Shown here in pieces: positions 21,301-62,787 of a DNA stretch of 64,000 nucleotides. The stretch comes from Escherichia coli (GTDB lineage: Bacteria > Pseudomonadota > Gammaproteobacteria > Enterobacterales > Enterobacteriaceae): NCBI RefSeq assembly GCF_044324785.1, contig NZ_CP172127.1, one strand, 5' to 3'. Positions within the stretch are counted from its first letter, which is position 1. Each line of letters starts with the position of its first letter. A program made the position numbers and the translations under genes. The notes beneath the pieces were generated by a model. It saw only the letters and a program-made list of their open reading frames with translations, searched no databases and was not told the origin of the DNA.

Positions 21301-22612
21301 CGTAGGCAACTGCTGAAATCGCATAATAATTGTCTTTGCCTGGACGGTAAGCCGGGAGCGTTACTTGCCACTGACTACCCTGACCGGTAATTTTGCCACC
21401 TTCAGCCAGTAATGACGGCGCTTCCCACTGCACATTTTTCAGTCCGTGAGTTGCTTTGCTCACCACAAGTCCCAGGGAAAGTGTCTGACCGCCCTTGCCT
21501 TCAATACGCTCAGGCAGAGCAATACGAATCACTTCAGATTTGCGGTACTCAAGAACGATGTTGTTATTACGCTCAACCAGGTCATAGCGGCTGCCTGCCA
21601 GCATTCGACGCTCGCGAATGCTGTCTGTATCGAGTTGTTTTTCCAGAGGTTCGCCAATTCGGTAGTTAACTTCCAGGCCAAAGCGAGTGTCATTCTCACC
21701 ACTCTTGCCCTGCTTATGCCCGGCGCTCAGTGTCAGAAGAGGCACTGGTGTATAGGTTACCTCGGCAGAAATAGCATGCGGGTCTTTCTGGCGTTTATCT
21801 TTACCAAACAGCCCGACTTCATCGCCATAATACTGCTCATACATCAGGCTTGCGCCAAGCTGCGGCCAGGCAGGTAAATAGCCCTCAGCACGAATATCCC
21901 AGCCATTCGCCGGGCGTTCCTGATAATCCTCAACATCCGGCGATTTTTTCCAGCCAGAAGCCCGGATATAACCATTGGCGCTCAGTTTCAAATAATCACG
22001 CCAGTATTCCGCACCAACACCAATGCGGGTATGACTACGGGATAAATCATGATCGATAAAAGTGTTCACCCCCGCCATCCAGTCATTTCCTGAAAAATGA
22101 CGCCAGCCAAAACCAATATTTGACTGAGTACGATCGTCGGTACGATGTATTGCCCCCTGAGTGAACAACATATTTGTCGGCGTGTCATAAATCGGATAAA
22201 GCATTTCCAGCGAAGAGTCCTTCAGCGAGAAATCTTTATCGACATTCAGTTTGACGCGCGCAGTACCATATTTCCCGAGCCACTCCTGTATTTCCTGGTT
22301 AGCTTTAGCTGTGGCCATTCCGGTAATAAAGTTACGTGTCGCATCGCTATCTGGCTGACTGCTTAAAAATGTCCCGGCATTTGCGGCAAACGACGCGACA
22401 TTTTTCTCCACGTTATTATCAGCAGTTACCGTAGTATTTCCCATGCTCAACCGTGGCTGAACCGCATGCTGCGCACGTGCCGCCATTACTGGGGTAAAGG
22501 TGACAGCGAGTGGAAAAAGAACCTGAACAGAGATATTTGCCCACGCCACGCAGCGGGCCAGAACTGAATAACGAAATCGTGGTTGTTTATGACCTGTTTT
22601 ATAACGTGACAT
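18359..22612 (-). CDS. eaeH: intimin/invasin-like outer-membrane adhesin with tandem bacterial Ig-like repeats (EaeH/FdeC)
   Basis: 1417-aa ORF. An N-terminal beta-barrel region is followed by more than 10 repeats of the pattern ...TLT..D..GNPV.G.... Confidence 0.9.
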   Translation of the reverse strand: MSRYKTGHKQPRFRYSVLARCVAWANISVQVLFPLAVTFTPVMAARAQHAVQPRLSMGNTTVTADNNVEKNVASFAANAGTFLSSQPDSDATRNFITGMATAKANQEIQEWLGKYGTARVKLNVDKDFSLKDSSLEMLYPIYDTPTNMLFTQGAIHRTDDRTQSNIGFGWRHFSGNDWMAGVNTFIDHDLSRSHTRIGVGAEYWRDYLKLSANGYIRASGWKKSPDVEDYQERPANGWDIRAEGYLPAWPQLGASLMYEQYYGDEVGLFGKDKRQKDPHAISAEVTYTPVPLLTLSAGHKQGKSGENDTRFGLEVNYRIGEPLEKQLDTDSIRERRMLAGSRYDLVERNNNIVLEYRKSEVIRIALPERIEGKGGQTLSLGLVVSKATHGLKNVQWEAPSLLAEGGKITGQGSQWQVTLPAYRPGKDNYYAISAVAYDKKGNASKRVQTEVVITGAGMSADRTALTLDGQSRIQMLANGNEQKPLVLSLRDAEGQPVTGMKEQIKTELTFKPAGNIVTRTLKATKSQAQPTLGEFTETEAGVYQSVFTTGTQSGEATITVSVDGMSKTVTAELRATMMDVANSTLSANEPSGDVVADGQQAYTLTLTAVDSEGNPVTGEASRLRLVPQDTNGVTVGAISEIKPGVYSATVSSTRAGNVVVRAFSEQYQLGTLQQTLKFVAGPLDAAHSSITLNPDKPVVGGTLTAIWSTKDANDNPVTSLTPEAPSLAGAAAVGSTASGWTNNGDGTWTAQITLGSTAGELEVMPKLNGQDAAANAAKVTVVADALSSGQSTVSVAADRVKAGESTTVTLVAKDAHGNAISGLSLSASLTGTASEGATISSWTEKGDGYYVATLTTGGKTGELRVMPLFNGQPAATEAAQLTVIAGEMSSANSTLVADNKTPTVKTTTELTFTVKDAYGNPVTGLKPDAPVFSGAASTGSARPSAGSWTEQSNGVYVATLTLGSAAGQLSVMPRVNGQNAVAQPLVLNVAGDASRAVISDMAVKVNNQLANGQSANQVTLTVVDSYGNPLQGQEVTLTLPQGVTSKTGNTVTTNAAGKADIELISTVAGELEIAAVVKNSQKTVTVKFNADASTGQANLQVDTAVQKVANGKDAFTLTATVEDKNGNPVPGTLVTFNLPRGVKPLTGDNVWVKANDEGKAELQVVSVTAGTYEITASAGNSQPSNTQTITFVADKTTATVSGIEVIGNYALADGKAKQTYKVTVTDANNNLLKDSDVTLTASPASLNLEPNGTATTNEQGQAIFTATTTVAATYTLKAQVSQTNGQVSTKTAESKFVADDKNAELTASSDVQSLVADGKSTAKLEVTLFSANNPVGGNVWVDIEAPEGVTEKDYQFLPSKNDHFVSGKITRKFSTSKPGVYTFTFNALTYGGYEMKPVTVTITAVDADTAKDEEAMK

Positions 22613-47390: not shown

Positions 47391-47652
47391 TAGTAGAAAT
47401 ATTTAAACCAGTGTAGGTTCAGGGATACGCCACAGCAAGAAATAGTTTACTTATTCCTCATTTTGTCTACTTAAAATTGACATTGAGAAAAAAATACAAA
47501 CTTACCTACATTCAGGCAAAGTGCGACAAATAGACTCGGTCGGTTTAAAGAGAACGTGTAACATAGATGCAAATCGAATAGACATTGTTGCCAGCCGTTC
47601 CAAGGTTGTGGGGCGCTGCATGGCCTGAGACGTGATAAATACAGGGAACACA

Positions 47653-50600
47653 ATGAAATTCACTGAAGATACCCGAGTAAAAATCCCCGTCATCCTCCAC
47701 CTGATACGGCTGGGCTACCACTACCTGTCCCTTAAAGAACAACGCTGGGACAAAGAAACCAATATCTTCCCTGACCTCTTCACCGCTGCGATTGGCAGAA
47801 TAAATCCCGGACTTGTGCCAGACGACATCGGACGCCTGTTAAAAGACCTCACGCTGCTTCTCGACAACGATGATCTGGGCCGCGCCTTCTTCGAAAAACT
47901 CAGTGACCGTTCCGGTATCAAACTGATCGACTTTGATAACTTCAACAACAACAGTTTCCATGTCGTCACCGAACTGACCTGCGAAAACGGTGATGAAGAA
48001 TTCCGCCCGGACATCACGCTGCTGATCAACGGCATGCCGCTAATCTTTATCGAAGTGAAAAAACCCAACAATCGGGAAGGCATCGTCGCAGAACGCAACC
48101 GCATCAACGAACGCTTTAAAAACCCCAAATTCAAACGCTTCGCCAACATCACCCAGTTCATGATCTTCTCCAATAACATGGAGTATGACGACAGCGACCC
48201 GGAGCCGATTCAAGGGGCATTCTACGCCAGCAGCTCTTACAGCAACCCGGTATTCAACTACTTCCGCGAAGAAGAACTCTTCAACCTGACCAACTTACTG
48301 AAACCGCTGTCAGAAGAAACCGAAATCGCCGTCCTGAAAGACAACAACCTGGAAGTGATCCGCACCAACCCGGAATTTCAGACCAACAAAGATCACAACC
48401 GCCCGACAAACCGCCTCTGCACCGCGCTGTTGAGCCGGGATCGGCTGGCATTTATCCTGCGCTATGCGCTGGTGTATGTAGCCGAACCGGGCGGCATCCA
48501 AAAACACATCATGCGCTACCCGCAGCTCTTCGCCACCAAAGCGATTGAGCGCAAACTGAACGCTGGCGTGAAAAAAGGCATTATCTGGCACACCCAGGGC
48601 AGTGGGAAAACCGCATTGGCATACTACAACGTGCGCTTCCTGACAGATTACTTCCAGAATCAGCAGGTGATCCCGAAATTCTACTTTATTGTCGATCGTC
48701 TTGATCTGCTCCAGCAGGCGCAGCGTGAATTCACCGCCCGTGGCTTAATCGTTCACCTTATCGACTCCCGCGAAGCCTTCACCCGCGATATCAAAGCGAC
48801 GCAGGCGCTGCACAACCACCACGGCAAAGCGGAAATCACCGTCGTCAACATCCAGAAATTCCGCGATGACCCGGATGTCGTCACCACCAAAGACTACGAC
48901 ATCAACATCCAACGCGTGTACTTCCTCGATGAAGTCCACCGCAGCTACAACCCCAAAGGGAGCTTCCTGGCGAATTTAAGCCAGTCGGACACCAACGCCA
49001 TCAAAATTGGCCTGACCGGTACGCCTCTGCTGGGCACAGACTACAACTCCCGCGACCTCTTCGGCGACTACATCCACAAATACTACTACAACGCCTCCAT
49101 TGCCGACGGCTACACGCTGCGCCTGATCCGTGAAGAGATCGCCACCAACTACCGGATGATCCTGCAACAGGCGCTAAAAGACGTAGAAGTCAGAATGGGC
49201 GATGTGGATCGCAAAGACATCTACGCCCATCCCAGTTTCGTCAAACCGATGCTGAACTACATCGTCACCGACTTTGCCAAAAGCCGGGGCGCACTGAATG
49301 ATGACACCATCGGCGGCATGGTGATTTGCGACAGCTCAGAACAGGCCAAGCAGATGTTTGAGATATTCAACACTGACTACGCCGAATCGCCCACCGCTGC
49401 CGATGACGTCGCCGAAGAAATGCCGGTATTACAGGCCGCAGAGCCTGCCGCCGTTTACCAGATCCACGCCAAAGAAACGCGGAAAATCAAACGCGCCGCC
49501 CTGATCCTGCACGACGTCGGCAGCAAGCAGGAGCGCAAAGAATGGGTGGATCAATTCAAAGCGGGCGAGATTGACCTGCTGTTCGTCTACAACATGTTGC
49601 TCACGGGCTTTGACGCCAAACGGCTAAAAAAACTCTACCTCGGGCGGGTGATCAGAAAGCACAACCTGCTCCAGGCGCTGACCCGCGTCAACCGAACCTA
49701 CAACCACTTCCGCTACGGCTATGTGGTGGACTTCGCCGACATCCGCCAGGAATTTGACGCCACCAACAAAGCCTACTTCGAAGAGCTACAGGCTGAACTG
49801 GGCGATGAAATGGAGCATTACTCCCGCCTGTTCAAATCAGCGGATGAGATTCGCGAAGAAATCGAACATATCAAAGACGTTCTGTTTAGCTTCGATACCG
49901 AAAACGCGGAAATCTTCACTGACCAGATAAACCAGATCCATGACCGGGAAACCGCGCTGGTACTGAAAAACGCGCTGGCCGACGCCCGCAGCCTGTACAA
50001 CCTGATTCGCCTCCAGGGCAACACTGAGTTTCTCCAGGCGCTGGATTTCAACAAACTCAACATCCTTTACCGCGAAGCCAGCCGCCGCCTCGACTTACTC
50101 AACCTGAAGGCGGATCTGGAACAGGGTGTTGACCTCTCCGGCCTGCTGAACCGGGCGCTGGAAGAGGTGATCTTTGAATTCCACAAAGTGGGCGAAGAAG
50201 AGCTGGTACTGGCCGACGAGCTGAAAGAGACGCTGCGCCGCACCCGCGAAGCGCTGGCCGCCAACTTCGACCAGCAGGACCCGCAGTTCGTCAGCCTGAA
50301 AGACGAACTGGAGCGTCTGTTTAAGAAAAAGAAACTCAGCGAAGTCACCCAGCAAGAAATGGTTGCGAATATCGGCACACTCAATAAAATTCATGGCCGC
50401 ATCAAAGAGCTAAACCGCCAAAATAACCTGCTGCGCCAGAAATACCGTGGCGACGTGAAATACGCGCGTACCCACAAACGCCTGCGCGAGCGCGGCGGCC
50501 TGAGCGAGCCGGAGCGTAAAATCTTCGAAGCACTGCTTGGCGTTAAGCTGGATGCGGATGAAAAAGTGCTGAATAACAGCCAGATACTGAACAACGAAAG

Positions 50601-50751
50601 CTATTTTGAGCGGCAGATTGTGTCATGTGTACTCGATCACTTTGAACAACAGCAGCACATCACCCTGAGTGCGAAAGCGGCTGGCGACATCAACCGCCTG
50701 ATTGTGGCGGAATACCTGAACGAATTTAATACCGGAGCACGTACGTGGTAG
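47653..50751 (+). CDS. hsdR: type I restriction enzyme R subunit HsdR
   Basis: N-terminal PD-(D/E)xK nuclease motif (RPDITLLINGMPLIFIEVKK), and helicase motifs GSGKT and DEVH. Start at ATG 47653 (MKFTEDT). Confidence 0.9.
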   Translation: MKFTEDTRVKIPVILHLIRLGYHYLSLKEQRWDKETNIFPDLFTAAIGRINPGLVPDDIGRLLKDLTLLLDNDDLGRAFFEKLSDRSGIKLIDFDNFNNNSFHVVTELTCENGDEEFRPDITLLINGMPLIFIEVKKPNNREGIVAERNRINERFKNPKFKRFANITQFMIFSNNMEYDDSDPEPIQGAFYASSSYSNPVFNYFREEELFNLTNLLKPLSEETEIAVLKDNNLEVIRTNPEFQTNKDHNRPTNRLCTALLSRDRLAFILRYALVYVAEPGGIQKHIMRYPQLFATKAIERKLNAGVKKGIIWHTQGSGKTALAYYNVRFLTDYFQNQQVIPKFYFIVDRLDLLQQAQREFTARGLIVHLIDSREAFTRDIKATQALHNHHGKAEITVVNIQKFRDDPDVVTTKDYDINIQRVYFLDEVHRSYNPKGSFLANLSQSDTNAIKIGLTGTPLLGTDYNSRDLFGDYIHKYYYNASIADGYTLRLIREEIATNYRMILQQALKDVEVRMGDVDRKDIYAHPSFVKPMLNYIVTDFAKSRGALNDDTIGGMVICDSSEQAKQMFEIFNTDYAESPTAADDVAEEMPVLQAAEPAAVYQIHAKETRKIKRAALILHDVGSKQERKEWVDQFKAGEIDLLFVYNMLLTGFDAKRLKKLYLGRVIRKHNLLQALTRVNRTYNHFRYGYVVDFADIRQEFDATNKAYFEELQAELGDEMEHYSRLFKSADEIREEIEHIKDVLFSFDTENAEIFTDQINQIHDRETALVLKNALADARSLYNLIRLQGNTEFLQALDFNKLNILYREASRRLDLLNLKADLEQGVDLSGLLNRALEEVIFEFHKVGEEELVLADELKETLRRTREALAANFDQQDPQFVSLKDELERLFKKKKLSEVTQQEMVANIGTLNKIHGRIKELNRQNNLLRQKYRGDVKYARTHKRLRERGGLSEPERKIFEALLGVKLDADEKVLNNSQILNNESYFERQIVSCVLDHFEQQQHITLSAKAAGDINRLIVAEYLNEFNTGARTW

Positions 50752-50909
50752 AACTGTAATTTAGAGATAAAACCAAAACCCTGATCGACAGCCTGAAAAG
50801 CATCTGTGCGAACTACGGCCTGGGCAACGACGGTAACGAATTCAAAATTATCACTCAGGCATTCCTGTACAAATTCCTGAACGACAAATTCGCCTTTGAA
50901 GCCAAAAAG

Positions 50910-52382
50910 GTGGATAAAAGCATCGCCAGCGCCGAAAAATGGGAAGTCGCGCTCAATCAGATGAGCGAAGAACAGCGGGATAAACTGCAACTGAAGATGA
51001 GCGCCGACACTGCGCGTCTGAAGCCGCATCACTTCATTCAGTATTTATACAACCGTCAAAATGAGGCCAATTTCGCCACCACCTTTGACGACACCCTGAT
51101 GGACATCGCCGCCACCAACAACGACGTCTTCGCGGTCAAAACTGACGGCGGCGCGAAAGTGGTGCTGTTTGAGCGCCTCAGCCAGTACATCGCCGACGAA
51201 TCAAGGCGCGACGACTTCTGCCGCGCCATTATCAACAAACTGGCCGATTTCAGCTTCGAGCGCATCTTCACGCAGAAATTCGACTTCTACGCCACTATCT
51301 TTGAATACCTGATCAAAGACTACAACAGCAACTCCGGCGGCAAATACGCGGAATACTATACGCCCCACGCCGTGGCGCGCATCATGGCGGAAATCCTGGT
51401 GCCGAAAGCACAACAGGGCGTAGTGCGCAACGTAAGCTGTTACGACCCGTCCGCCGGTTCCGGCACCTTACTGATGAACGTGGCGCACGCCATCGGGGAA
51501 GATCGTTGCAGCATCTTCGCGCAGGACATCTCGCAGAAATCCTCCAGCCTGCTGCGCCTGAACCTGATCCTCAACAATCTGGTGCATTCGATCCCCAACG
51601 TGATTCAGGGCAACACCATTCTGCACCCGTTCCACAAGGACGGCAGCGCGCTGAAACGCTTTGACTATATCGTCTCTAACCCGCCGTTTAAGATGGATTT
51701 CAGCGATTTCCGCGACGATTTGGATAGCAAGGAAAACCAGCAACGTTTCTTTGCCGGGATACCAAAAATCAAAGCCAAAGCCAGGGACAAAATGGAAATT
51801 TACCAGTTGTTCCTGCAACACATCATTTTCTCGCTGAAACCGGATGGTAAGGCGGCGGTCGTGGTGCCGACCGGGTTTATCACCGCGCAGTCGGGCATTG
51901 ATAAAGGGATTCGCGAACATCTGGTGAAAAACAAGATGCTGGCGGGTGTGGTTTCCATGCCGTCGAATATCTTCGCCACCACCGGCACTAACGTATCGAT
52001 CCTGTTTATTGACGCCAGCAACAAAGAGAAAGTGGTGCTGATCGACGCCTCGAATTTAGGTGAAAAGGTCAAAGACGGCAAAAACCAGAAAACGGTGCTG
52101 ACCGAAGAAGAAGAGCAGCGCATCTGCGAAGTGTTCAACAACAAGTGGAGCGAAGAGGATTTCTCGGTGGTGGTCAGCTATGACGAGATCGCCGGGAAAA
52201 ATTACTCGTTCAGCGCCGGGCAGTATTTCGATGTGAAAATTGAATACACCGATATGACGCCGGAACAGTTTGCCGCGAAGATGAACGGGTTTACGGAGAA
52301 TCTGGAGAGTTTGTTTAGCCAGTCGCGCGAGCTGGAGGTGGAGATTAAAAAGCAGATGGCGGGGCTGAATTTCCATGGTTAA
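50910..52382 (+). CDS. hsdM: type I R-M methyltransferase subunit HsdM (start codon problematic, see findings)
   Basis: AdoMet motif DPSAGSGTLL and catalytic NPPF. The reading frame is open and HsdM-N-like from 50760, but the first canonical start is GTG 50910. Confidence 0.8.
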   Translation: MDKSIASAEKWEVALNQMSEEQRDKLQLKMSADTARLKPHHFIQYLYNRQNEANFATTFDDTLMDIAATNNDVFAVKTDGGAKVVLFERLSQYIADESRRDDFCRAIINKLADFSFERIFTQKFDFYATIFEYLIKDYNSNSGGKYAEYYTPHAVARIMAEILVPKAQQGVVRNVSCYDPSAGSGTLLMNVAHAIGEDRCSIFAQDISQKSSSLLRLNLILNNLVHSIPNVIQGNTILHPFHKDGSALKRFDYIVSNPPFKMDFSDFRDDLDSKENQQRFFAGIPKIKAKARDKMEIYQLFLQHIIFSLKPDGKAAVVVPTGFITAQSGIDKGIREHLVKNKMLAGVVSMPSNIFATTGTNVSILFIDASNKEKVVLIDASNLGEKVKDGKNQKTVLTEEEEQRICEVFNNKWSEEDFSVVVSYDEIAGKNYSFSAGQYFDVKIEYTDMTPEQFAAKMNGFTENLESLFSQSRELEVEIKKQMAGLNFHG

Positions 52383-53493
52383 AACTATTGGTGATGCTTG
52401 TAATATTAGTACAGGTAAACTTGATGCAAACCAGGCTGTAAAAGGTGGTGATTATCCGTTTTTTACGTGCGCAGAGTTCCCTGAACAAATCGATCATTAT
52501 GCATTTGACGGCGATGTGGTTCTTATTGCTGGCAATAATGCAAGAGGAAACTTTCACGTAAGCAGGTATCAAGGGAAATTTAATGCTTACCAGCGAACCT
52601 ATGTGCTTACAGCCAAACATGGTTATGATATTGATTATATTTACTATGCCTTAAGACTTGAATTAAAGCGATTGCGAGAAAAATCTCAAGGCTCGCAAAC
52701 AAAGTTTCTGACAATGCCGATTTTGACCAGTATATCGCTAGGAAACCTAGTCGAGACTGAACAATCGACAGTTTCAAGAGTATTAAAAATACTGGATAAA
52801 AAAATCGCTCTCAACAATCGTATCAACGCCGAGCTGGAAGCGATGGCGAAAACACTGTATGACTACTGGTTTGTACAGTTTGATTTCCCTGATGCCAACG
52901 GAAAACCGTATAAAACCTCCGGCGGGAAGATGGTGTACAACGCCACGCTGAAACGGGAAATTCCGGCGGGGTGGAATATTAAAAATCTTGGCGATATAGC
53001 GGAACTATATCAGCCTAAGACCATTTCAGGTAACGATTTTATTGATGATGGTGAATATCTTGTATATGGAGCCAACGGTATTGTAGGAAGATTCAATAAA
53101 TATAACCATGAAGAACCTGTCGTTACAATCACCTGCCGTGGAAATACGTGCGGCAATATAAACGTCACACGACCATATTCATGGATTACAGGGAATGCAA
53201 TGGTGGTTAAGCCAAAGTTTAACTATATTTCACCTTATTATATTTATAATTTATTGTCGATATCGGAAGTTGATAAAGTCATTACTGGCTCTGCTCAACC
53301 TCAAATTACGCGAGCAAACCTAGCTCCACTTAAGGTTGTTGAACCAGCAGAGGACATTACGCAAAAATACTCAAAGTCTGTTGATGCTTTTTTTAAAAAG
53401 CATATCTCAATATTAGATGAAAATGATAATTTATTAAAACTCCGCGACTGGCTCCTCCCCCTGCTTATGAACGGACAGGTCACGGTCAAATAA
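52375..53493 (+). CDS. hsdS: type I R-M specificity subunit HsdS (two target-recognition domains)
   Basis: Its ATG overlaps the hsdM stop. It has two low-GC TRDs separated by the conserved spacer LDKKIALNNRINAELEAMAKTLYDYWFVQFDFP, and a conserved C-terminal LRDWLLPLLMNGQV. Confidence 0.85.
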   Translation: MVKTIGDACNISTGKLDANQAVKGGDYPFFTCAEFPEQIDHYAFDGDVVLIAGNNARGNFHVSRYQGKFNAYQRTYVLTAKHGYDIDYIYYALRLELKRLREKSQGSQTKFLTMPILTSISLGNLVETEQSTVSRVLKILDKKIALNNRINAELEAMAKTLYDYWFVQFDFPDANGKPYKTSGGKMVYNATLKREIPAGWNIKNLGDIAELYQPKTISGNDFIDDGEYLVYGANGIVGRFNKYNHEEPVVTITCRGNTCGNINVTRPYSWITGNAMVVKPKFNYISPYYIYNLLSISEVDKVITGSAQPQITRANLAPLKVVEPAEDITQKYSKSVDAFFKKHISILDENDNLLKLRDWLLPLLMNGQVTVK

Positions 53494-53835: not shown

Positions 53836-54306
53836 ATGGCTACAATCCTCACCCCTGACTGCGATTTACTCGATCTGTTATCCGTTCCCTTCAATGCCAC
53901 CACGGATTTTACTGTCCTTGCCGATTACTGCACCCGCTTCGCCGAAACCCTGATAGAAACCGACGATCCCGCGCTGCGGCTGGCGCTGAGCGGACGGCTT
54001 CACGCGGCTCTTGCGCTACTGCAACCCACACTGCATGACCCCATCCCGCCGCATCTTACCGAAAGCCTGACCGTTAATACCCTTCCCGCCACACCAGAGC
54101 ACTTTATTTCCGAACCCGATTCCTTGTGCGAATACTGCCTCGCACTGCTCCAGCTTCTGCTGGAACGCCCGGCGGAGCCAAAAATGGAGCAAACCCTGAC
54201 CGGGCTGCTGTGTGAGCTGGTCTGGAATTTCACGGAAGGACTCAAATCCCCGCGCTGGCTGCGTACCGCCGACGGCGTAAAATTTATCAGTGAGGTGGCC
54301 GCATGA
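53836..54306 (+). CDS. hypothetical acidic Leu-rich protein, 156 aa, no recognisable domain
   Basis: ATG with a good SD. It starts [15 protein letters not shown]... No TM segment or signal peptide. Its stop overlaps the start of the next (broken) gene. Confidence 0.6.
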
Positions 54307-54449
54307 TGCAACAGGACTGGCATTCCACCGACATTATCGCCACGCTGAAAAAGCGGGGAACGTCTCTGGCGGCGCAGAGAAAAACTCATTGCGGACGCGC
54401 TGTAAATATCGTCAGAAATCATCTGGCCTTCAAGGTACTTTGATAGCAA
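54303..54449 (+). pseudogene. Ner/Nlp-like small DNA-binding protein, internally deleted and interrupted
   Basis: The N-terminus [24 protein letters not shown] resembles Ner/Nlp. The characteristic C-terminus (S)EI(I)WPSRYF appears only in another frame, after a stop. Confidence 0.55.
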
Positions 54450-54451
54450 AG

Positions 54452-54655
54452 GCAAGCAGGCTGGTTCAGTCCCGTGTTTCTCTTCTTGCATTTTCAGAAA
54501 TGGGAGGCTGGGAGTCTATCGAAATGGTTCGTCGATATGCTCACCTCGCACCTAATCACCTTACCGAACACGCACGGCAAATAGACTCGATCCTGAACCC
54601 ATCGGTCCCAAATTTGTCCCAGTCAAAAAATAAGGAAGGTACTAATGATGTGTAA
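54452..54655 (+). pseudogene. C-terminal ~67 codons of a lambdoid (P22-type) tyrosine integrase
   Basis: [37 protein letters not shown] contains the catalytic-Tyr box (RYAHL). There is no N-terminal or core domain upstream. It ends 14 nt before the att core. Confidence 0.75.
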
Positions 54656-54669
54656 CTTATTGATTTAAA

Positions 54670-54715
54670 TGGTGCCGATAATAGGAGTCGAACCTACGAC
54701 CTTCGCATTACGAAT
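54670..54715 (-). other. 46-nt 3' fragment of tRNA-Thr (thrW): attachment-site core, not a functional tRNA
   Basis: The reverse complement reads ATTCGTAATGCGAAGGTCGTAGGTTCGACTCCTATTATCGGCACCA, which is the anticodon loop, T-arm, acceptor 3' strand and CCA as I recall thrW. The 5' half is absent. Confidence 0.75.
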
Positions 54716-55044
54716 CTGTAGAACCAATCATAACTATCTGTTTTAGCAAGCATTAACCGCATTCACCAAGCAATAGTTGATGGCACAAACAGAAAGTTGA
54801 TGCATGATGTTGTCATGTGTATGTCACAAATACGGCACAACGATCTTCAAACATGTAGCCACCCAGCATAGAAGAGCACAAATCCTTGCAATCCAGTGCA
54901 AAGCTTTGTGTACCTTAGTTTTGTCTCATAGGTAATTCTGCTTTAACTGCGATGCAGGAATCTGTCACCAGACGCACGTCTCGTTGTTTTATGGTTTTCC
55001 GTTCATGATTAATATGTTAGCTTGTCAAAGTTTGTGTTTAAGAT

Positions 55045-55716
55045 ATGGTGATTGATGCAATGTTAAGCGTTCAGATGACTCCACAAGCAAAAGTTAGCTT
55101 CGAGGAGCAATGTTTTTTTCATGCTTCATGTCTTGTTGTTGCCCCAATAAATGTTGGAGCATTCTCCTACTTTGGCGCTAATTGTATGCTCGGCGGCTTT
55201 ACGATGGGTAGATTTTGTTCAGTTGCTCCAGGAGTAAAAATTGGCCTTGGCGAGCATGAAACTGGGTATTTTTCTACGCATCCTTTTTTCTTTGGCTCAA
55301 AAAATGGTTTTAAAATCCCTGATGGTATAGGAATGCAACGCGACCTCTCTCAACAGAAGCATGGTATACCAAGAATTGGTCATGACGTATGGATAGGTGC
55401 AAATGCGGTTATCAGGCGAGGTATAACTATTGGTACTGGCGCTGTTATTGCTGCTGGCGCTATTGTCACCAAAAATGTCGATCCATATTCAATCGTAGGT
55501 GGCGTTTCTGCAAAACACCTAGGGTACAGATTTGAGGAATCAATCATCAAAGAGTTACTGGATAGCCAATGGTGGGAATATGATTTAAGCTCATTTATTG
55601 GGATTGATACAAGGACACCGACGACTTTTTTAGAGCAGTTTAATGCTGTAAAAGATAAAAAGAAGGCATCTTATAAGAGATTTACAATTCTTCCATCCGG
55701 TGAAATTGTTGAATAG
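55045..55716 (+). CDS. XAT-class hexapeptide-repeat acetyltransferase (CatB/Vat-like)
   Basis: [66 protein letters not shown] and the C-terminal [11 protein letters not shown] fit the xenobiotic acetyltransferase pattern. The start codon is uncertain (weak SD). Confidence 0.75.
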
Positions 55717-55735: not shown

Positions 55736-58105
55736 TTAAATAAACATAAGAATAAACATCAGAAGTTCTTCGTATCTGATACCATACTGATAGCCAGCAG
55801 GTTTAATAATAACCTGCCTTCCTGTGTAATATTCCTCGTCGTACCACTCTCCTGTTTCATTGTTTTTAACACTCCTAATCAATACCTCTGGAGCATAAAT
55901 ATCATCCCATTCATCATAACACCAGAACGCATAGTTATTAGGGTCAAGACCGTATTTTCTGAGAATATTACCTACAGTTTGTGCACCAACGCCGAAATGA
56001 ATCCGAGCGCCATCACTCTTGATCTTTACTGCATCTTTAAATTTAAACCTCCAGATATTTTCCTTTATTTCAAGCGCAGCAAGACGCTCTGATTCTGTTG
56101 TTTTCTCGTCAGCCTCAATACGCAATTTCAGCTCTTCATTCGACGTGTTGATACTGCCAGTACCAGCGTATACCTGTGACCATCGAAATGCTGATGTTCC
56201 GTTTGAGTTAACATTATCAACAGTTGGTTTTATAAGGCCAGAAAAATGAGTTTCAGGTGTATTAATATATGTATATGCACCTGCTGTACTACGAGTCCTT
56301 AACTCAAAGCTGTCTATATCAACACCAGTCCTACGAATTATAAGGAAGTTATTTCCTGCGGAACCAGTATCGGTTTGAGTGCTAACAGACAATCCGTTTC
56401 GTGTATCAATACGTATATTCTTCCCGTTCTCCAGCGAAGCAGAATTATGTAGATACAGCGAGTTGTCAGTGTAGAGATTGTGTTTACCTACATTGCTAAA
56501 TGTATAAGTATTGCTTGTGTTATCACTGTTCCTATGGAATTGCTGAAGAGTGTAGGCAGAAGATGCTCCGTATCCATCACAATGGAAATTTCTGCACAGC
56601 TGCAAATCGAATAACAATACGGTGTCAGCATTAATGCTCACATTATTAAAGCATGTTGCAAAGTTGGCACCATACTGTGAATTGGAATCGCCAATCTGTG
56701 CGCACACATCAAGCAAACCAAAAGTTACATTGGTAAAGTTATTTGCATCACCGGCGTCAAGAACAATCCCTTTCTTAGTCCCTGAATACCCTCTGGCAGT
56801 GCCGATCTCAACTCCCTGGAATGAACACACGCGAGCACGACTAAGCTTAAGACCAACCCATTCCAGACCATGATCGTAACCTTTTGCTGCGCGGTGAATA
56901 AACATACCATTCATGATGAGAAGGAATCTGTTATCAAGCCGTACTGGTTCAAGTTGGGCATTAATACCAACATTTGTGCATATACATTCACCATAAGCAT
57001 AACGATTCGTTTCAAATATACGATCATCAGCGTCGTAAATGCCTCGTAATGCCTTGGCGGCATCAATATTAAGCAATGTAAAATATGTCTTCTGCTTAAT
57101 TTCAAAAAAATTTGCAACATTATGCGTTGTGATATCACTCACACGCATTGATAAAATCCCCTCTTCTGGAGCGGTGCGAATGAATCCATCAAGGAACTGT
57201 TCATTATAACTTTTGGCTATCTGATAACATCCAACAGCATCAATGCGTTCGATTGTGAACTGCCAACTATCACCACAGTTAAAAGACCATCTCCAGCCGT
57301 ATTTCTGAGCGAATTCATCATATTCAACATTTGCAGGTTCAGAACAGAAAGATAAAAATCTAAATGTTGGTTTTGGCCTTAGATGGTTAATCCCGGAACC
57401 TCTTGGGGTATATATGGCATTATCTCCATTCCCACCTTTTGTTTTAACTGTAAGGTGACTTAAACCAAATTCAATATCATATTTAGTTGGTGCGGCGAAA
57501 ACAAAGCCGTCTTTTGGTGATGTGGTATTGTCAAACACAATAACCGTTTCACCCTGCCCATCACCGCACATATTTACTGGTGGTATATTAACGGGGCCAG
57601 TCAAACTATATGTTCCAGTTGGCACATATAGTTTTCCACCCTCTCCAATAGCATTTGCCGCTGCAATAAATGCCGCCGTATCATCGTTAACACCGTCACC
57701 TTTCGCCCCATAATGCTGTGGCGTAATTAACAGCATACGGTCAGAAAAAATCTCTGTCCTAAGTTGATCAGGATCGTATTTTAATACATTTGGAAAATAA
57801 AACTGCTGAGTGCCATATGCATCATATACAGCCATAGAATGGCCTTGCACGGTAACGAATTTGGCAATCTGTCCGTTATATACCGGATAACCAGCAGCGT
57901 TAATAATGATTGGTTGAGAAACAGGAACGTGAGAACCGTCTTCGTTCTCTACATAAACCGGAATCTGGTTTTCAGGATTTACCGGGTCAGTGTCAATTTT
58001 ACCGATATAAATTTTTCCATTAGCATTTGCTTTAAACGAGCGAGCTAAAGTGAATAACTGACTTGGTTGTGAAACAACAACATTGGCATTTATTGAATCT
58101 GTCAT
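55736..58105 (-). CDS. tailspike: P22 gp9-type head-binding domain + pectate-lyase-like beta-helix depolymerase + C-terminal intramolecular chaperone (peptidase S74-like) domain
   Basis: The N-terminus [18 protein letters not shown]...[26 protein letters not shown]...[13 protein letters not shown] is nearly the P22 gp9 N-domain. [19 protein letters not shown] is a beta-helix signature. The C-terminal part has NTSNEELK (Ser-x4-Lys) and a chaperone-like tail. Confidence 0.9.
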
Positions 58106-58204: not shown

Positions 58205-59083
58205 TCAGTAGTTATGTACTGAAGGAGGTAATTCTTTATTCTTAAGTCTCATCCATGCGGAAATATTCGTTGGTCCGTCTGGCTCATTAATATCAACATC
58301 TCGTGTGTGATTGATTAAAACGTCTCTCGCCATTCCGATAACATACGAGAATTCATGACCGTAGTCGTAGCATCTGCCGGAATAGTTCGATTGAATTTGT
58401 TTCAGCGCCGGATACAGTTCGCGGAATAATGCCTGTGAGCGGTTGGCATAATCCCATAACCATACAAGGCTGTTTGCTTCTTTTGCAGAAAGCTCGTTGG
58501 TTTTCTTCTCTTGTTTGCCAATGAACTCACCTTCAAGCACTACCCTGTGGATGTACTCTACGGCCAGCGGGATTTGTTCAATTGAAAGTTCATCAATGCT
58601 GTCAATACCAAAACGCTGATGAACCATATTGTATGCATCGTCATAGCGAAGTCCTTTCTTTCCTACCAGCATGTTTACTGCATCGCGTAGCGGTGTTCTT
58701 TCCTCAACAGTGGTTTTCTTTCCTTTTACATACTCGCCATGTTTGCGAATTGAAGGCAGAACTTCTGCTGTTACCCACTTGCGGAATTTGTGCGGGACTG
58801 AACCTTTATTGACTGCATCGCGGCAGCGCAGAACCAATGTATACATACCTGATTCGCTCACAATGCTTAGATTCTGCTCACCACCAAGGGTGTAACTTAA
58901 AGTTACTCCCTTTTCATCGTCATCAAGTGCAGTAAGCGCCTTGCGTGAGTTAGTCAAATCTAAAGCATCACAAACATCTTTAGCTACAAACCACGGCTCA
59001 CCGCACTTGTTGATGACGCGGATTTCACTGTCGCCGAATTTGAAGATGGTGAAATCGTTTTGTGCCTTTGCTATACTTTTCAT
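58205..59083 (-). CDS. ant: antirepressor Ant (Bro-N + KilA-C type)
   Basis: [28 protein letters not shown]...[11 protein letters not shown] is a Bro-N domain. It is immediately downstream of arc, as in P22 immI. Confidence 0.9.
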
Positions 59084-59151: not shown

Positions 59152-59313
59152 TTACGCACCAATGCGCCCTTCCTTCTTAAAGCTTTCCATTACTCGCTGA
59201 TAAATCTCAGAATTAACAGACCGACCATTTTCTTCCGCCACCTTGCGTACCAAATCCAATACTTCTTTAGGCCACCGCAAATTGAACTGTGGCATTTTGC
59301 TCATTCCTTTCAT
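59152..59313 (-). CDS. arc: Arc repressor
   Basis: MKGMSKMPQFNLRWPKEVLDLVRKVAEENGRSVNSEIYQRVMESFKKEGRIGA (53 aa). It is essentially P22 Arc as I recall it. Confidence 0.95.
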   Translation of the reverse strand: MKGMSKMPQFNLRWPKEVLDLVRKVAEENGRSVNSEIYQRVMESFKKEGRIGA

Positions 59314-59329
59314 GTTCACCTCACAATAT

Positions 59330-59346
59330 AGGTCCACGGTGGACCT
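59330..59346. promoter_or_regulatory. Mnt operator
   Basis: Perfect 17-bp palindrome AGGTCCACGGTGGACCT between arc and mnt, identical to the recalled P22 Omnt. Confidence 0.85.
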
Positions 59347-59355
59347 ATTGAGAAT

Positions 59356-59376
59356 ATAGTAGAGTGCTTCTATCAT
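59356..59376. promoter_or_regulatory. Arc operator
   Basis: ATAGTAGAGTGCTTCTATCAT is the reverse complement of ATGATAGAAGCACTCTACTAT, the recalled 21-bp P22 Arc operator. Confidence 0.85.
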
Positions 59377-59403
59377 GTCAATACACTAACTTGGAGTGAT
59401 GGC

Positions 59404-59658
59404 ATGGCTAGAGATGATCCGCACTTTAACTTCCGTATGCCTTTGGAAGTAAGAGAAAAATTGAAATTAAGAGCCGAGGCTAACGGAAGGTCAATGAACT
59501 CTGAGTTATTACAAATCGTTCAGGATGCACTATCAAAACCATCACCGATTACAGGATATCGCGACGAAGCTGAACGCTTGGCTGATCAGCAGGCTGAGCA
59601 GTTCAAGGCTATAGTGTTTGAGACACTTAAAAAGATTTATGAAAAGGATTTGAAATGA
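59404..59658 (+). CDS. mnt: Mnt repressor
   Basis: MARDDPHFNFRMPLEVREKLKLRAEANGRSMNSELLQIVQDAL... is a ribbon-helix-helix protein close to P22 Mnt. It is divergent from arc. Confidence 0.95.
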   Translation: MARDDPHFNFRMPLEVREKLKLRAEANGRSMNSELLQIVQDALSKPSPITGYRDEAERLADQQAEQFKAIVFETLKKIYEKDLK

Positions 59659-59709
59659 GATTTCTATCACTGTTCTTGTTAGCAGTTGTCTCTTCTTCCA
59701 GTGCTGAGC

Positions 59710-60766
59710 GGCTTTGTTGAATAAATCGAACTTTTGCTGAGTTGAAGGATCAGATCACGTATCTTCCCGACAACGCAGACCGTTCCGTGGCAAAGCAAAA
59801 GTTCAAAATCACCAACTGGCCCACCTACAATAAAGCCCTCATCAACCGTGGCTCCATAACTTTCTGGCTGGATGATGAAGCTATTCAGGCCTGGTATGAG
59901 TCAGCAACACCTTCTTCACGAGGCAGACCTCAGCGCTATTCTGACCTTGCCATCACTACTGTGCTGGTCATTAAACGCGTATTCAGGCTGACCCTGCGGG
60001 CTGCGCAGGGCTTTATTGATTCCATTTTTTCTCTGATGAACGTTCCGCTACGCTGCCCGGATTACAGCTGTGTCAGCAGGCGGGCAAAGTCGGTTAATGT
60101 CAGTTTCAAAACGCCCACCCGGGGTGAAATCGCACACCTGGTAATTGATTCCACCGGGCTGAAGGTCTTCGGTGAAGGCGAGTGGAAAGTCAAAAAGCAT
60201 GGCCAGGAACGCCGCCGTATCTGGCGTAAGCTGCATCTCGCCGTTGACAGTAAAACACATGAAATCATCTGCGCTGACCTGTCGCTGAACAACGTTACGG
60301 ACTCAGAGGCCTTCCCCGGGTTAATCCGGCAAACCCACCGGAAAATCAGGTCAGCCGCCGCCGATGGCGCTTACGATACCCGGCTATGTCACGATGAACT
60401 GCGGCGTAAGAAAATCAGCGCGCTTATCCCTCCCCGAAAAGGTGCGGGTTACTGGCCCGGTGAATATGCAGACCGTAACCGTGCAGTGGCTAATCAGCGA
60501 ATGACCGGGAGTAATGCGCGGTGGAAATGGACAACAGATTACAACCGTCGCTCGATAGCGGAAACGGCGATGTACCGGGTAAAACAGCTGTTCGGGGGTT
60601 CACTGACGCTGCGTGACTACGATGGTCAGGTTGCGGAGGCTATGGCCCTGGTACGAGCGCTGAACAAAATGACGAAAGCAGGTATGCCTGAAAGCGTGCG
60701 TATTGCCTGAAAACACAACCCGCTACGGGGGAGACTTACCCGAAATCTGATTTATTCAACAAAGCC
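59710..60766 (+). mobile_element. IS903/IS102-type insertion sequence (IS5 family), 1057 bp
   Basis: Perfect 18-bp terminal inverted repeats GGCTTTGTTGAATAAATC, flanked by a 9-bp direct duplication GTGCTGAGC (59701-59709 and 60767-60775). Confidence 0.95.
59787..60710 (+). CDS. IS903-type transposase (DDE)
   Basis: A GTG start giving (M)AKQKFKITNWPTYNKALINRGS yields 307 aa, as recalled for IS903 Tnp. The track ORF begins 15 codons earlier at TTG. Confidence 0.9.
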   Translation: MAKQKFKITNWPTYNKALINRGSITFWLDDEAIQAWYESATPSSRGRPQRYSDLAITTVLVIKRVFRLTLRAAQGFIDSIFSLMNVPLRCPDYSCVSRRAKSVNVSFKTPTRGEIAHLVIDSTGLKVFGEGEWKVKKHGQERRRIWRKLHLAVDSKTHEIICADLSLNNVTDSEAFPGLIRQTHRKIRSAAADGAYDTRLCHDELRRKKISALIPPRKGAGYWPGEYADRNRAVANQRMTGSNARWKWTTDYNRRSIAETAMYRVKQLFGGSLTLRDYDGQVAEAMALVRALNKMTKAGMPESVRIA

Positions 60767-61071
60767 GTGCTGAGCTGCGCGAGCTTCAAACGGGTAATGA
60801 CCTTCTTTACAACATTCAACAAGGTAAAAAGGGTGATGATTTTTCATCGCTTTACATTACTGGATATTTGCGCGGAGTAACTGACTCATTGATACTAATT
60901 GGTTCTCTATGTCCTCCTGATGGCGTTGACATGTATCAATACACCGATATCGTTGAGAAATCTCTAAACAAAAACCCAGAATCAAGAAATGAGAGTGCAG
61001 TTATACTAACCGCCCTAGCAGTAGGAAAAACATTTCCGTGCAAAAAGAATCAATAACAATAAGGGCTTAAA

Positions 61072-61461
61072 ATGAAATTGATTATAGCAATGGCTTTCCT
61101 TGTCTTCTCGTTTTCTGTCTCAGCAGAGTGCTGGGTCGTTGGAGATATGCACGGAATAAGCTATTCAGAACGAAATAATTTTCAACCGGAAGAAGATGGT
61201 TTTAGTGGAACATTCATCATTAAGACAAACGGTGAAGATGCCAGTATCACATATTCTGGGACGGATGCGGGCGGCATGGCTTACAAAGCATTGTCTAAAA
61301 ACTCCATCCTAGGAATTGGCGCGAATGGAGAAACTCAACGCGTTATAGACTCATGGGTAATACATCCTACTGGAACAGTTTTAATGTCAAAAACCATTTC
61401 CGGTTATGGAAATATGGATTCAACCAAAGCTTTTGTTGGAAAAGTAAAAAGAAAATGTTAA
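61072..61461 (+). CDS. hypothetical secreted protein, 129 aa
   Basis: Signal peptide MKLIIAMAFLVFSFSVSA. Same strand as, and 15 nt downstream of, the interrupted gene. No recognisable domain. Confidence 0.6.
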   Translation: MKLIIAMAFLVFSFSVSAECWVVGDMHGISYSERNNFQPEEDGFSGTFIIKTNGEDASITYSGTDAGGMAYKALSKNSILGIGANGETQRVIDSWVIHPTGTVLMSKTISGYGNMDSTKAFVGKVKRKC

Positions 61462-61482: not shown

Positions 61483-61668
61483 TCAACAGCTTCCGCGTCC
61501 CTGAGTAATTCTGTTGCGGATTTGCTTCTTGCGGTGGTTTAAGCTGGAGAGCTTGGCTTCTGCTTCTGATATTTGCGCATCAAGATCTTTAAGCTCAAGA
61601 TCTGAAAGTCGCTGGTCAAGCAGGGTTTGGTTCAACTCAATATTGTTCAGACGTTCTTCTATGGTCAT
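61483..61668 (-). CDS. hypothetical 61-aa coiled-coil protein
   Basis: ATG 61668 lies 8 nt after AGGA. It encodes MTIEERLNNIELNQTLLDQRLSDLELKDLDAQISEAEAKLSSLNHRKKQIRNRI, which has heptad character. Confidence 0.45.
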   Translation of the reverse strand: MTIEERLNNIELNQTLLDQRLSDLELKDLDAQISEAEAKLSSLNHRKKQIRNRITQGRGSC

Positions 61669-61699
61669 AACTTTCATCCTATAACTATTTGGAATCAAA

Positions 61700-61882
61700 A
61701 TGAAAAATATATTAATTGGTTTCGTTTTTGGTGCAGCCTGCGCTGCCAGCATTAGCGTTATCGCCGCCCAGATTGTTGGTGGTAACTCATATCTAATGGG
61801 CTATGACGTCATGATAGATGGAGAGGTTGTTTGCTCAGACCCTTATGTATGGACGTCGACAAAAGAAATAGAATGTGACTAA
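61700..61882 (+). CDS. hypothetical 60-aa protein with an N-terminal signal/anchor and conserved-looking Cys pair
   Basis: [23 protein letters not shown]... followed by a terminator. Weak SD. Confidence 0.45.
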
Positions 61883-61883
61883 T

Positions 61884-61908
61884 ACCAGCCTGATGGCTGG
61901 TTAATTTT
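61884..61908 (+). terminator. rho-independent terminator
   Basis: accagcc-tgat-ggctggt followed by taattttt. Confidence 0.7.
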
Positions 61909-61992
61909 TGCATTTACCTGGGCCATATTGACTACTTATAAAATGAGATCAATATTTAATCGCCCAATAACGGGTGTATGTTGAGGTATATC

Positions 61993-62172
61993 ATGGCGAA
62001 AAAACCAGGTGAAAATACAGGGAAAAACGGCGGAATATACCAGGAAGTTGGTCCACGCGGTGGTAAGAAGGACAATTTTGCCACCGTCAGGGACAACGAA
62101 AGACTTCCGCCAACAACAAAGCCAGGTCATGGCTGGGTATTGGATAAGCGAACTCCAGACAGCAAAAAGTAA
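61993..62172 (+). CDS. YjzC-like small protein (59 aa)
   Basis: MAKKPGENTGKNGGIYQEVGPRGG...LPPTTKPGHGW fits the YjzC-family pattern as recalled. GAGG SD lies 6 nt upstream. Confidence 0.6.
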   Translation: MAKKPGENTGKNGGIYQEVGPRGGKKDNFATVRDNERLPPTTKPGHGWVLDKRTPDSKK

Positions 62173-62177
62173 TAATC

Positions 62178-62200
62178 AAGCCGGGTCACTCCGGCTTTTT
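62178..62200. terminator. hairpin terminator shared by the convergent genes
   Basis: aagccgg-gtcact-ccggctt followed by ttt. It overlaps the last codons of the minus-strand gene. Confidence 0.6.
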
Positions 62201-62551
62201 GATATGTCGCTCGCAGAACTCAACAAGCCTGCTCATTAAGTAGCAGTAAGTCTCGTTGGCTCTTCCTGGTTCAACATCAACACCTACCCTTGAGCAGATA
62301 TCGAATGCCATGTGAGCGCACTCATGGGCAATAGTAGATAGTTTGCCATTGAACACGCCTATCACATGCAAAACACCATTCTCGCTACTCATTGTATGAG
62401 ACGCTCCGTTGGCGTCCGAGTCATGCACGTCAACGCCAAGTTTTTGATGCAGGCGTTGCCATTCTGGAAAGTCTCTACAAAACACAATGGTACCGCTCTC
62501 AAAGAGCGGTACGAGCATCTTTGGTACGTTTCCAATGTTAACTTTTTTCAT
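62186..62551 (-). CDS. small HExxH protein (121 aa), possible minimal ImmA/IrrE-like metallopeptidase
   Basis: TIAHECAHMAFD...EPGRANETYCYL: an HExxH motif plus a downstream E/AN segment reminiscent of COG2856 proteins. The family assignment is tentative. Confidence 0.55.
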   Translation of the reverse strand: MKKVNIGNVPKMLVPLFESGTIVFCRDFPEWQRLHQKLGVDVHDSDANGASHTMSSENGVLHVIGVFNGKLSTIAHECAHMAFDICSRVGVDVEPGRANETYCYLMSRLVEFCERHIKKPE

Positions 62552-62581
62552 GGTATCCTGCGCAAAACTAAGGAGGTTGGT

Positions 62582-62770
62582 GTGAAGAAAAAATTTGTAA
62601 ACGTTGCAAAGTGCGCAATTTTTATATTTTTTATGACCTTTTACGGATTTAGTGCCGGAGAAGGTTTCGATCGTGATGCCAATGCATTCAGTTTCTTTTG
62701 TCTGTCTATAGTGGTCATAATTGTATGGGTGGAATTAAAGCAAACATTGTTTCATGTGCTAGGGAAATAA
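62582..62770 (+). CDS. hypothetical 62-aa two-TM membrane peptide
   Basis: GTG 62582 lies 5 nt after AGGAGG. It encodes (M)KKKFVNVAKCAIFIFFMTFYGF...FSFFCLSIVVIIVWV. It is divergent from the HExxH gene, with 30 nt between the starts. Confidence 0.5.
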   Translation: MKKKFVNVAKCAIFIFFMTFYGFSAGEGFDRDANAFSFFCLSIVVIIVWVELKQTLFHVLGK

Positions 62771-62787
62771 CCATCCATGGCATTTAG

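Follow-up and report, generated by a model that had tools for sequence, protein, structure and literature searches.

A Rap1a-family gene of a P22-like Escherichia coli prophage, placed behind mnt and split by IS903B

Introduction

Which gene lay behind the maintenance repressor gene mnt of an Escherichia coli prophage before an insertion sequence (IS) landed in it, and what would its product have done for the lysogen? The question is raised by a locus in a stretch of 64,000 nucleotides from contig NZ_CP172127.1 (RefSeq assembly GCF_044324785.1), referred to below as the window. A preliminary description, made from the letters of the window, proposed that a fresh IS903-type element splits a gene for a secreted protein which is coupled to mnt, and tentatively suggested a likeness to the periplasmic Rap1a/Tai4-type immunity proteins that act against amidase effectors of type VI secretion systems (T6SS). 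In the analysis reported here, the structural part of the answer, that is the gene structure, the Rap1a family, the prophage position and the disruption by IS903B, is very nearly certain. The whole explanation, in which the intact gene would serve as an orphan immunity gene against a Tae4-family T6SS amidase, we put at roughly 60%.

An IS903B element splits a continuous gene

The two parts of the gene and the element between them are arranged as follows.

59655-59709, plus strand: Rap1a-family gene, 5' fragment; codons 1-18 plus the first nucleotide of codon 19, in essence the predicted signal peptide
59701-59709: target-site duplication GTGCTGAGC, left copy, exactly 9 bp
59710-60766, plus strand (the strand of the mnt operon): IS903B, 1057 bp, with perfect 18-bp inverted repeats
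59710-59727 (left) and 60749-60766 (right): inverted repeats of IS903B, identical over exactly 18 bp, GGCTTTGTTGAATAAATC
59742-60710, plus strand: transposase open reading frame (ORF) of IS903B, 969 nt; Pfam DDE_Tnp_1_5 and DDE_Tnp_1, NCBIfam IS5 transposase
60767-60775: target-site duplication, right copy, exactly 9 bp
60776-61056, plus strand: Rap1a-family gene, 3' fragment; rest of codon 19 to codon 111 and the stop codon, the whole mature domain

The element belongs to the IS903 group of the IS5 family, as its length, inverted repeats, 9-bp duplication and DDE transposase all fit. The transposase ORF matched the NCBIfam IS5-family model NF033579 at 6e-107, and the identity of the element to annotated IS903B copies was 99-100%; with the copy in E. 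coli XDL it agrees at 100% along its full length, and PGAP labels the same 969-nt coding sequence there 'IS5-like element IS903B family transposase'. The 18-mer GGCTTTGTTGAATAAATC occurs in the 64-kb window only at the two ends of the IS, with 0.01 occurrences expected by chance, and a script check indicated that the match between the copies of GTGCTGAGC ends at 9 bp, with no extension beyond. The size of the element, its perfect inverted repeats, the 9-bp duplication and the IS903-type assignment given in the preliminary description were thus all reproduced.

IS903B insertions are routine events, and the copy in the window is an ordinary one in a new site. In the comparison set of 5,426 complete E. 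coli genomes, megablast found thousands of annotated IS903B copies, and many genomes were multicopy, a single genome having as many as 47 matching places. No place in these genomes matched the IS plus both flanks at a coverage of at least 80%, and the exact left junction between the IS and the gene was not found in the viral contig and metagenome contig collections. Since the junction was seen in no other collection searched, the insertion is strain-specific; since the element is undamaged and its duplication perfect, the insertion into the Rap1a-family gene was probably recent.

Removal of the IS and of one copy of the duplication joins 59655-59709 to 60776-61056 and gives 336 nt in frame, i.e., 111 codons and a stop codon, with the insertion point at codon 18/19. 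The span 59655-61056 given in the preliminary description is exactly the split gene. Its ATG (59655-59657) shares the tetranucleotide ATGA with the mnt stop codon TGA (59656-59658), leaving no gap after mnt, and an AAGGA Shine-Dalgarno sequence lies 7-8 nt 5' of the ATG. The amino acid pattern that had suggested the family, GY.RGV.D....C.P.GV....Y..IV.K.L..NPE.R...A.....AL...FPC, is present in the restored protein. Without the repair, the reading frame runs into IS903B and ends after 21 residues (MRFLSLFLLAVVSSSSAERLC and a stop codon), and the mature domain in the 3' fragment is left with neither a start codon nor a signal peptide, while mnt itself is unharmed. In practical terms, the locus should be annotated as one split pseudogene and not as two small ORFs.

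The IS might instead be an artefact of assembly, or the 9-bp repeat a coincidence, in which case the gene would never have been continuous in this strain. Multicopy IS903B can confuse short-read assemblies, and beyond this general point we found no supporting evidence for such an explanation. The junctions are exact at both inverted-repeat ends, the duplication has the expected length, and excision yields an ORF only one nucleotide away from alleles in 15 complete E. coli genomes. With exact junctions and a restoration that is perfect to one nucleotide, we regard an artefact as essentially excluded.

The single nucleotide by which the restored allele differs from the commonest intact allele, that of E. 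coli C, is A242C, which changes tyrosine 81 to serine (Y81S). Codon 81 (window positions 60963-60965) reads TCT here and TAT in all close homologues; the position is occupied by tyrosine in six of the six close homologues, and 69 of 77 family members have an aromatic residue (Y, F, W) there. Y81S is a second change in the window allele and may be inactivating.

The restored protein

The family label proposed in the preliminary description was examined by profile and fold comparisons. The restored protein matched Pfam PF18602 (Rap1a) with E=1e-13 and 52 bits, against a cutoff (gathering score) of 27.7, over profile positions 1-90 of 90. When 1.84 billion cluster representatives were searched exhaustively with HMMER, 3,599 relatives were obtained at E<=1e-3. 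When a profile of 77 sequences was compared with the PDB, the matches were Tai4 of Agrobacterium tumefaciens (2e-8) and Rap1a of Serratia marcescens (2.7e-6), with both cysteines aligned; single-sequence phmmer against the same database reached Tai4 at only E=1.7. NCBIfam contained no model that matches the restored protein.

The AlphaFold2 model of the restored protein (predicted local distance difference test 80.7, predicted template modelling score 0.70) consists of a signal-peptide helix, a short helical turn of three residues after it, and four long helices. In a Foldseek search of the PDB with this model, the top seven matches were Rap1a (4bi8, 3zfi) and A. tumefaciens Tai4 (AtTai4; 6ije, 6ijf), all with probability 1.00, a target-normalised template modelling (TM) score of 0.73-0.78 and 22-26% identity, and the next match had a TM score of 0.17. 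Rap1a is a five-helix dimer in which a disulfide, described as needed for folding, links Cys78 of the alpha2-alpha3 loop to Cys122 close to the C-terminus (PMC3852654). The modelled protein agrees with the five-helix Rap1a subunit fold, and its C64, placed after the long second helix, and C107, four residues from the C-terminal end, match the positions of Rap1a Cys78 and Cys122; each of them is present in 76 of the 77 aligned family members. C64 and C107 are thus predicted to be a Rap1a-type pair that forms a disulfide.

Rap1a ('Tai4a') has been set apart from the main Tai4 fold family, which comprises STTai4, EcTai4 and Rap2a (PMC3852654). Structures of the latter three were absent from both the Foldseek and the profile matches in the PDB. 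The restored protein is a member of the Rap1a/Tai4a family and not of the main Tai4 fold family, so that the proposed label held for the former (by PF18602, the PDB profile matches and the fold) and failed as far as it extended to the Salmonella/Enterobacter Tai4 fold.

Upstream of the Rap1a domain, which begins at residue 24, the N-terminus reads MR, a hydrophobic core of 10 residues, SSSSA and then E; among homologues this segment varies yet remains hydrophobic. A Sec-type signal peptide is thus predicted to precede the domain. In a clade with 65% identity (our loci L003, 8001-8342, and L006, 6001-6336) we also noticed a cysteine within the signal-peptide region, in the context SACGAE or SSCGAE, which suggests that these proteins might be lipoproteins rather than soluble periplasmic proteins.

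Position in the prophage

The surroundings of the split gene on its mnt side comprise the following features; the coordinates of promoters and operators were transferred from the annotation of P22 (BK000583).

55736-58105, minus strand: P22-type tailspike gene; Pfam Head_binding, 2.1e-64
58205-59083, minus strand: antirepressor gene ant; Pfam Bro-N and P22_AR_C; 99.7% amino acid identity to Ant of the E. coli C prophage
59152-59313, minus strand: repressor gene arc; Pfam Arc, 9.8e-31
59330-59381: divergent Pant/Pmnt promoters with their operators
59330-59352: Omnt, the Mnt operator
59356-59376: Oarc, the Arc operator
59348-59376, plus strand: promoter Pmnt
59381-59353, minus strand: promoter Pant
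59404-59658, plus strand: maintenance repressor gene mnt, intact, 84 codons for amino acids; Pfam Arc (3.7e-28) and Repressor_Mnt (1.3e-11)

The E. coli prophage is P22-like (Lederbergvirus-type), and the locus is its immI region. As in P22, the genes are ordered tailspike, ant, arc, mnt, the P22-type tailspike marks the prophage as P22-like, and a homologue of the gp16 ejection protein is found at the right edge of the window. The interval between arc and mnt is identical to the annotated P22 control region at 118 of 121 bp, and a consensus scan independently recovered the same two promoters, Pmnt and Pant. The encoded Mnt is 100% identical in amino acids to the Mnt of prophages in which the downstream gene is intact. 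In P22, according to its annotation, the mnt transcript runs on through the small orf59a to a terminator, and sieA then follows with its own promoter. Co-expression of the Rap1a-family gene with mnt in lysogens, which the preliminary description had expected, would be consistent with the nearly P22-identical Pmnt/operator region and with the absence of a gap between mnt and the gene.

Uninterrupted alleles

If the restored ORF corresponds to a real gene, uninterrupted alleles should occur at the same place in related prophages, and such alleles were found directly 3' of mnt. With sensitive blastn the gene was located in 25 of the 5,426 complete genomes of the comparison set; 24 of these have it at full length, with 98.5-99.7% nucleotide identity, and it is also carried by 16 IMG/VR prophage contigs. 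RefSeq/PGAP already gives the intact gene the name 'Rap1a/Tai family immunity protein', beside an 'Arc family DNA-binding protein', which is Mnt. Six clusters in the protein database represent it at 59-97% identity; they come from uncultured samples and from E. coli, Serratia fonticola and Serratia sp. When one genome of each species was scanned with the single sequence, no relative was obtained, and the sole match of an alignment-based scan of the same scope was a 66% allele in Silvania confinis. Among 50,697 GenBank phage records, tblastn found no close homologue and four weak matches of 28-34% identity. The intact alleles sit in prophages, within bacterial genomes and IMG/VR, and not in isolated phages. 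Weak Rap1a-like tblastn matches (E=1e-5) were noticed in the phage records OR003939.1 (25120-25359) and MW749009.1 (56689-56883), which are phage DSL-LC04, with an ORF labelled 'type VI amidase', and a Bacillus phage.

In every related locus examined (more than 20), arc, the divergent mnt and then the Rap1a gene follow each other. The 4-nt overlap with mnt is kept in most of these loci, even with a Mnt that is only 33% identical, and is replaced by a short gap in a few (L006, L019, L021, L022 and L025). No effector-like gene was adjacent in any of them; on its 3' side the gene was followed by a secreted beta-barrel gene, by a second Rap1a paralogue or by the ejection-protein gene. The second of these arrangements was seen in a Serratia fonticola prophage (L023, 8001-8715), where two tandem Rap1a genes follow mnt; the two are 30% identical to each other and both pass the Pfam Rap1a threshold.

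Comparison of diverged alleles gave 0.10-0.22 for the proportion of nonsynonymous differences (pN) and 0.53-0.86 for that of synonymous differences (pS), the synonymous sites being saturated or nearly so, and in the single unsaturated pair of alleles the ratio of nonsynonymous to synonymous substitution rates (dN/dS) was about 0.12. The low pN in comparison to pS shows that the intact gene is under purifying selection. Of the 5,426 complete genomes, 219 contain P22-type mnt regions, but only the 25 mentioned above have the Rap1a gene, tied to one mnt allele, which argues for variable cargo and not for core phage equipment. We also noticed an independent loss of the gene in E. coli BA92 (L030, NZ_CP176406, 2501-2729), where an internal deletion of the prophage starts at nucleotide 229 of the Rap1a gene, reaches the gene of antiterminator Q and takes away the structural genes.

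A possible role in lysogens

The characterised members of the Rap1a/Tai4a family, Rap1a and AtTai4, all neutralise Tae4-family T6SS effectors (PMC3852654). Drawing on these members and on the established biology of P22, we propose that the intact gene would be transcribed from Pmnt in lysogens, with its translation coupled to that of mnt, and that its product would be exported via Sec to the periplasm and oxidised there to a disulfide-stabilised dimer. When the T6SS of a rival delivers a Tae4-family peptidoglycan amidase/endopeptidase, the active site of the incoming enzyme would be sterically blocked by the dimer. As no effector gene accompanies it, the Rap1a-family gene would be an orphan immunity gene, given by the phage to its host, and lysogenic conversion would in this case bring resistance to a toxin; in the strain of the window such protection would have been lost through the IS903B insertion. 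The two divergent tandem paralogues of S. fonticola favour a repertoire of immunity proteins, since they form an array like those of T6SS immunity loci.

Several observations weigh against this proposal. No cognate effector was identified for the prophage Rap1a-family protein, and the prophage clade is isolated in the family (its own cluster scores 5e-40, the next representative 3.7e-14), so that target specificity is not readable from homology. Around the nearest relatives outside the prophage clade no effector was seen, these relatives being on contigs that are short or being without DNA. A literature search across 8 million papers found neither a phage-borne Rap1a nor Rap1a-type genes in the mnt operon of P22-like prophages. 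Every close relative found sits in a prophage, which would fit a phage-directed role equally well. Finally, with Y81S in the window allele, precise excision of the IS alone may not give a fully functional protein.

In a phage-directed role, the protein would be a periplasmic factor for superinfection exclusion or for the control of lysis. It would block a peptidoglycan hydrolase belonging to an incoming or a resident phage and would merely have its fold in common with the T6SS immunity proteins. Such a role would agree with the place of the gene, since P22 has orf59a and the exclusion gene sieA in the same slot, between mnt and gene 16, with the finding of all six close protein clusters in P22-like prophages, far from the rest of the family, and with the assignment of the restored protein to PHROG 3870, a phage protein family of unknown function. 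Moreover, the weak Rap1a-like matches in other phages include a Bacillus phage, whose host has no T6SS. However, the only characterised members, Rap1a and AtTai4, act on T6SS amidases of the Tae4 family, and the divergent tandem paralogues in Serratia resemble an immunity repertoire. Furthermore, the flanking prophage genes showed no NlpC/P60-type (papain-like) hydrolase, the sole peptidoglycan-hydrolase domain observed there, in an ejection-protein position, being SLT, and PADLOC gave no defence-model match for the restored protein or its neighbours apart from weak coiled-coil noise. Taken together, we consider a role on the side of the phage unlikely.

The protein could also inhibit an antibacterial hydrolase that acts in the periplasm and does not come from a T6SS, such as a bacteriocin, a contact-dependent toxin or a host enzyme, or could have a periplasmic role that is not inhibitory at all. 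The lack of a linked effector or T6SS gene in any locus examined would be in agreement with this, as would the low identity to characterised members (22-26% in structural alignments) and the conserved partner gene, which encodes a secreted beta-barrel of unknown function. Membership in the Rap1a family is nevertheless indicated by the sequence profile, the fold and the cysteine pattern alike, and every characterised member acts on Tae4-family T6SS effectors. We rank this alternative slightly below the phage-directed role.

Orphan immunity against a Tae4-family T6SS amidase thus remains our preferred explanation, and a wider version of it may be considered, namely that P22-like phages of Enterobacterales keep their own Rap1a clade in the mnt operon, in some cases as a tandem of paralogues or alongside a secreted beta-barrel protein, and that their lysogens thereby resist specific T6SS peptidoglycan amidases of gut competitors. 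We advance this generalisation tentatively, as a possibility that falls somewhat short of an even chance. If it were true, the decay by IS seen here would mark a lost selective pressure. Should the proposed function of the gene hold, temperate phages would be vehicles that spread resistance to T6SS toxins among gut Enterobacterales, with expression tied to lysogeny via the mnt promoter. Immunity to interbacterial toxins would then join the list of lysogenic-conversion traits, and the locus would offer a compact testable system, a single 111-codon gene with natural intact and IS-disrupted alleles. The novelty is modest: the IS903B knockout is ordinary, the family is known and the intact gene is named in RefSeq; for the prophage arrangement, we found no published description.

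Other genes in the window

The split gene is followed, now on the 3' side of IS903B, by the gene of a second secreted protein.

61072-61461, plus strand: gene of 129 codons, its product a secreted beta-barrel protein as predicted from an AlphaFold2 model; Sf6 gp38-like, PHROG 2651

This gene accompanies the Rap1a gene in most of the related loci. Its product has a signal-peptide-like N-terminus, an invariant C20 and a nearly invariant C129, and its model (predicted local distance difference test 85) is all-beta, with a barrel of roughly eight strands. No Pfam match was obtained for the protein, and fold searches returned generic barrels only. As the S. fonticola prophage has its second Rap1a paralogue in the slot of the 129-codon gene, the barrel may likewise act as a protective factor in the periplasm.

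A block of four small ORFs (61483-62780) separates the 129-codon gene from gene 16; it is absent from the E. coli C prophage and represents mosaic cargo. The ORFs encode a 64-aa coiled-coil protein on the minus strand, with an XhlA family label in other genomes; a 60-aa protein (61700-61882) with a hydrophobic N-terminus, assigned to PHROG 37095, with a terminator-like hairpin behind it (61884-61901); a weakly YjzC-like protein of 64 aa; and, on the minus strand, a 121-aa protein of PHROG 1365.

Just beyond the tailspike, the region 54290-55716 contains a gene for a hexapeptide-repeat acyltransferase (55045-55716), possibly cargo that modifies the O-antigen, as well as a short ORF (54290-54655) in which a weak phage-integrase fragment was recognised. 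The prophage probably ends between 53.5 and 55 kb. The prophage end is adjoined by a type I restriction-modification locus with hsdR, hsdM and hsdS (47632-53493), which is about 97% identical to its best E. coli matches. The chromosomal part of the window is 99.1% identical to E. coli N3 over 10 kb, and at 18359-22612, on the minus strand, the window encodes a 1417-aa inverse autotransporter with an intimin/invasin-type beta-domain and many Ig-like repeats.

Relation to known systems

With respect to its 1057 bp, 18-bp inverted repeats, 9-bp duplication and single DDE transposase, the inserted element shows no notable difference from IS903/IS903B. The locus that received it resembles the immI region of P22 in the order tailspike, ant, arc, mnt, in the near-identical control region and in the presence of a small cargo ORF 3' of mnt; it differs in the content of this slot, which holds orf59a and sieA in P22 and the Rap1a gene with the 129-codon secreted-protein gene in the lineage of the window prophage.

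The best structural match of the restored protein is Rap1a (SMA2260 of S. marcescens Db10; PDB 3ZFI, 4BI8), the 'Tai4a' protein that confers immunity to the T6SS effector Ssp1. Both are small helical proteins of PF18602 with a predicted signal peptide and a corresponding pair of cysteines (C64/C107 here, C78/C122 in Rap1a); however, they share 22-24% identity, and Rap1a is encoded in a T6SS cluster beside its effector, whereas the gene described here lies in a prophage mnt operon and is disrupted by an IS. Tai4 of A. tumefaciens (6IJE, 6IJF), which confers immunity to Tae4, belongs to the same Pfam family, has the same fold, is the best PDB profile match and aligns with the C-terminal FPC motif of the restored protein. 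Unlike the prophage gene, it is located beside its effector, in a plant-associated alphaproteobacterium, and the identity between the two proteins is 23-26%. Tai4 of Salmonella Typhimurium and Enterobacter cloacae, as well as Rap2a, Rap1b and Rap2b, are also small periplasmic helical dimers that neutralise Tae4-family amidases, and these main Tai4 proteins differ from the restored protein by their fold family (PMC3852654); no structure of any of them was among its fold or profile matches.

As for genetic context, the nearest parallel is provided by orphan immunity islets such as SAIDI-1 of Salmonella Typhi, in which genes of immunity families occur without a linked effector on mobile or accessory DNA (PMC7400221). 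Such islets sometimes form arrays and have been proposed to protect from the toxins of rivals, and the prophage gene is like them in having no effector and in forming a tandem pair in Serratia. In contrast to the islets, its carrier is a temperate phage, and the gene is built into the mnt operon, by which lysogeny is maintained.

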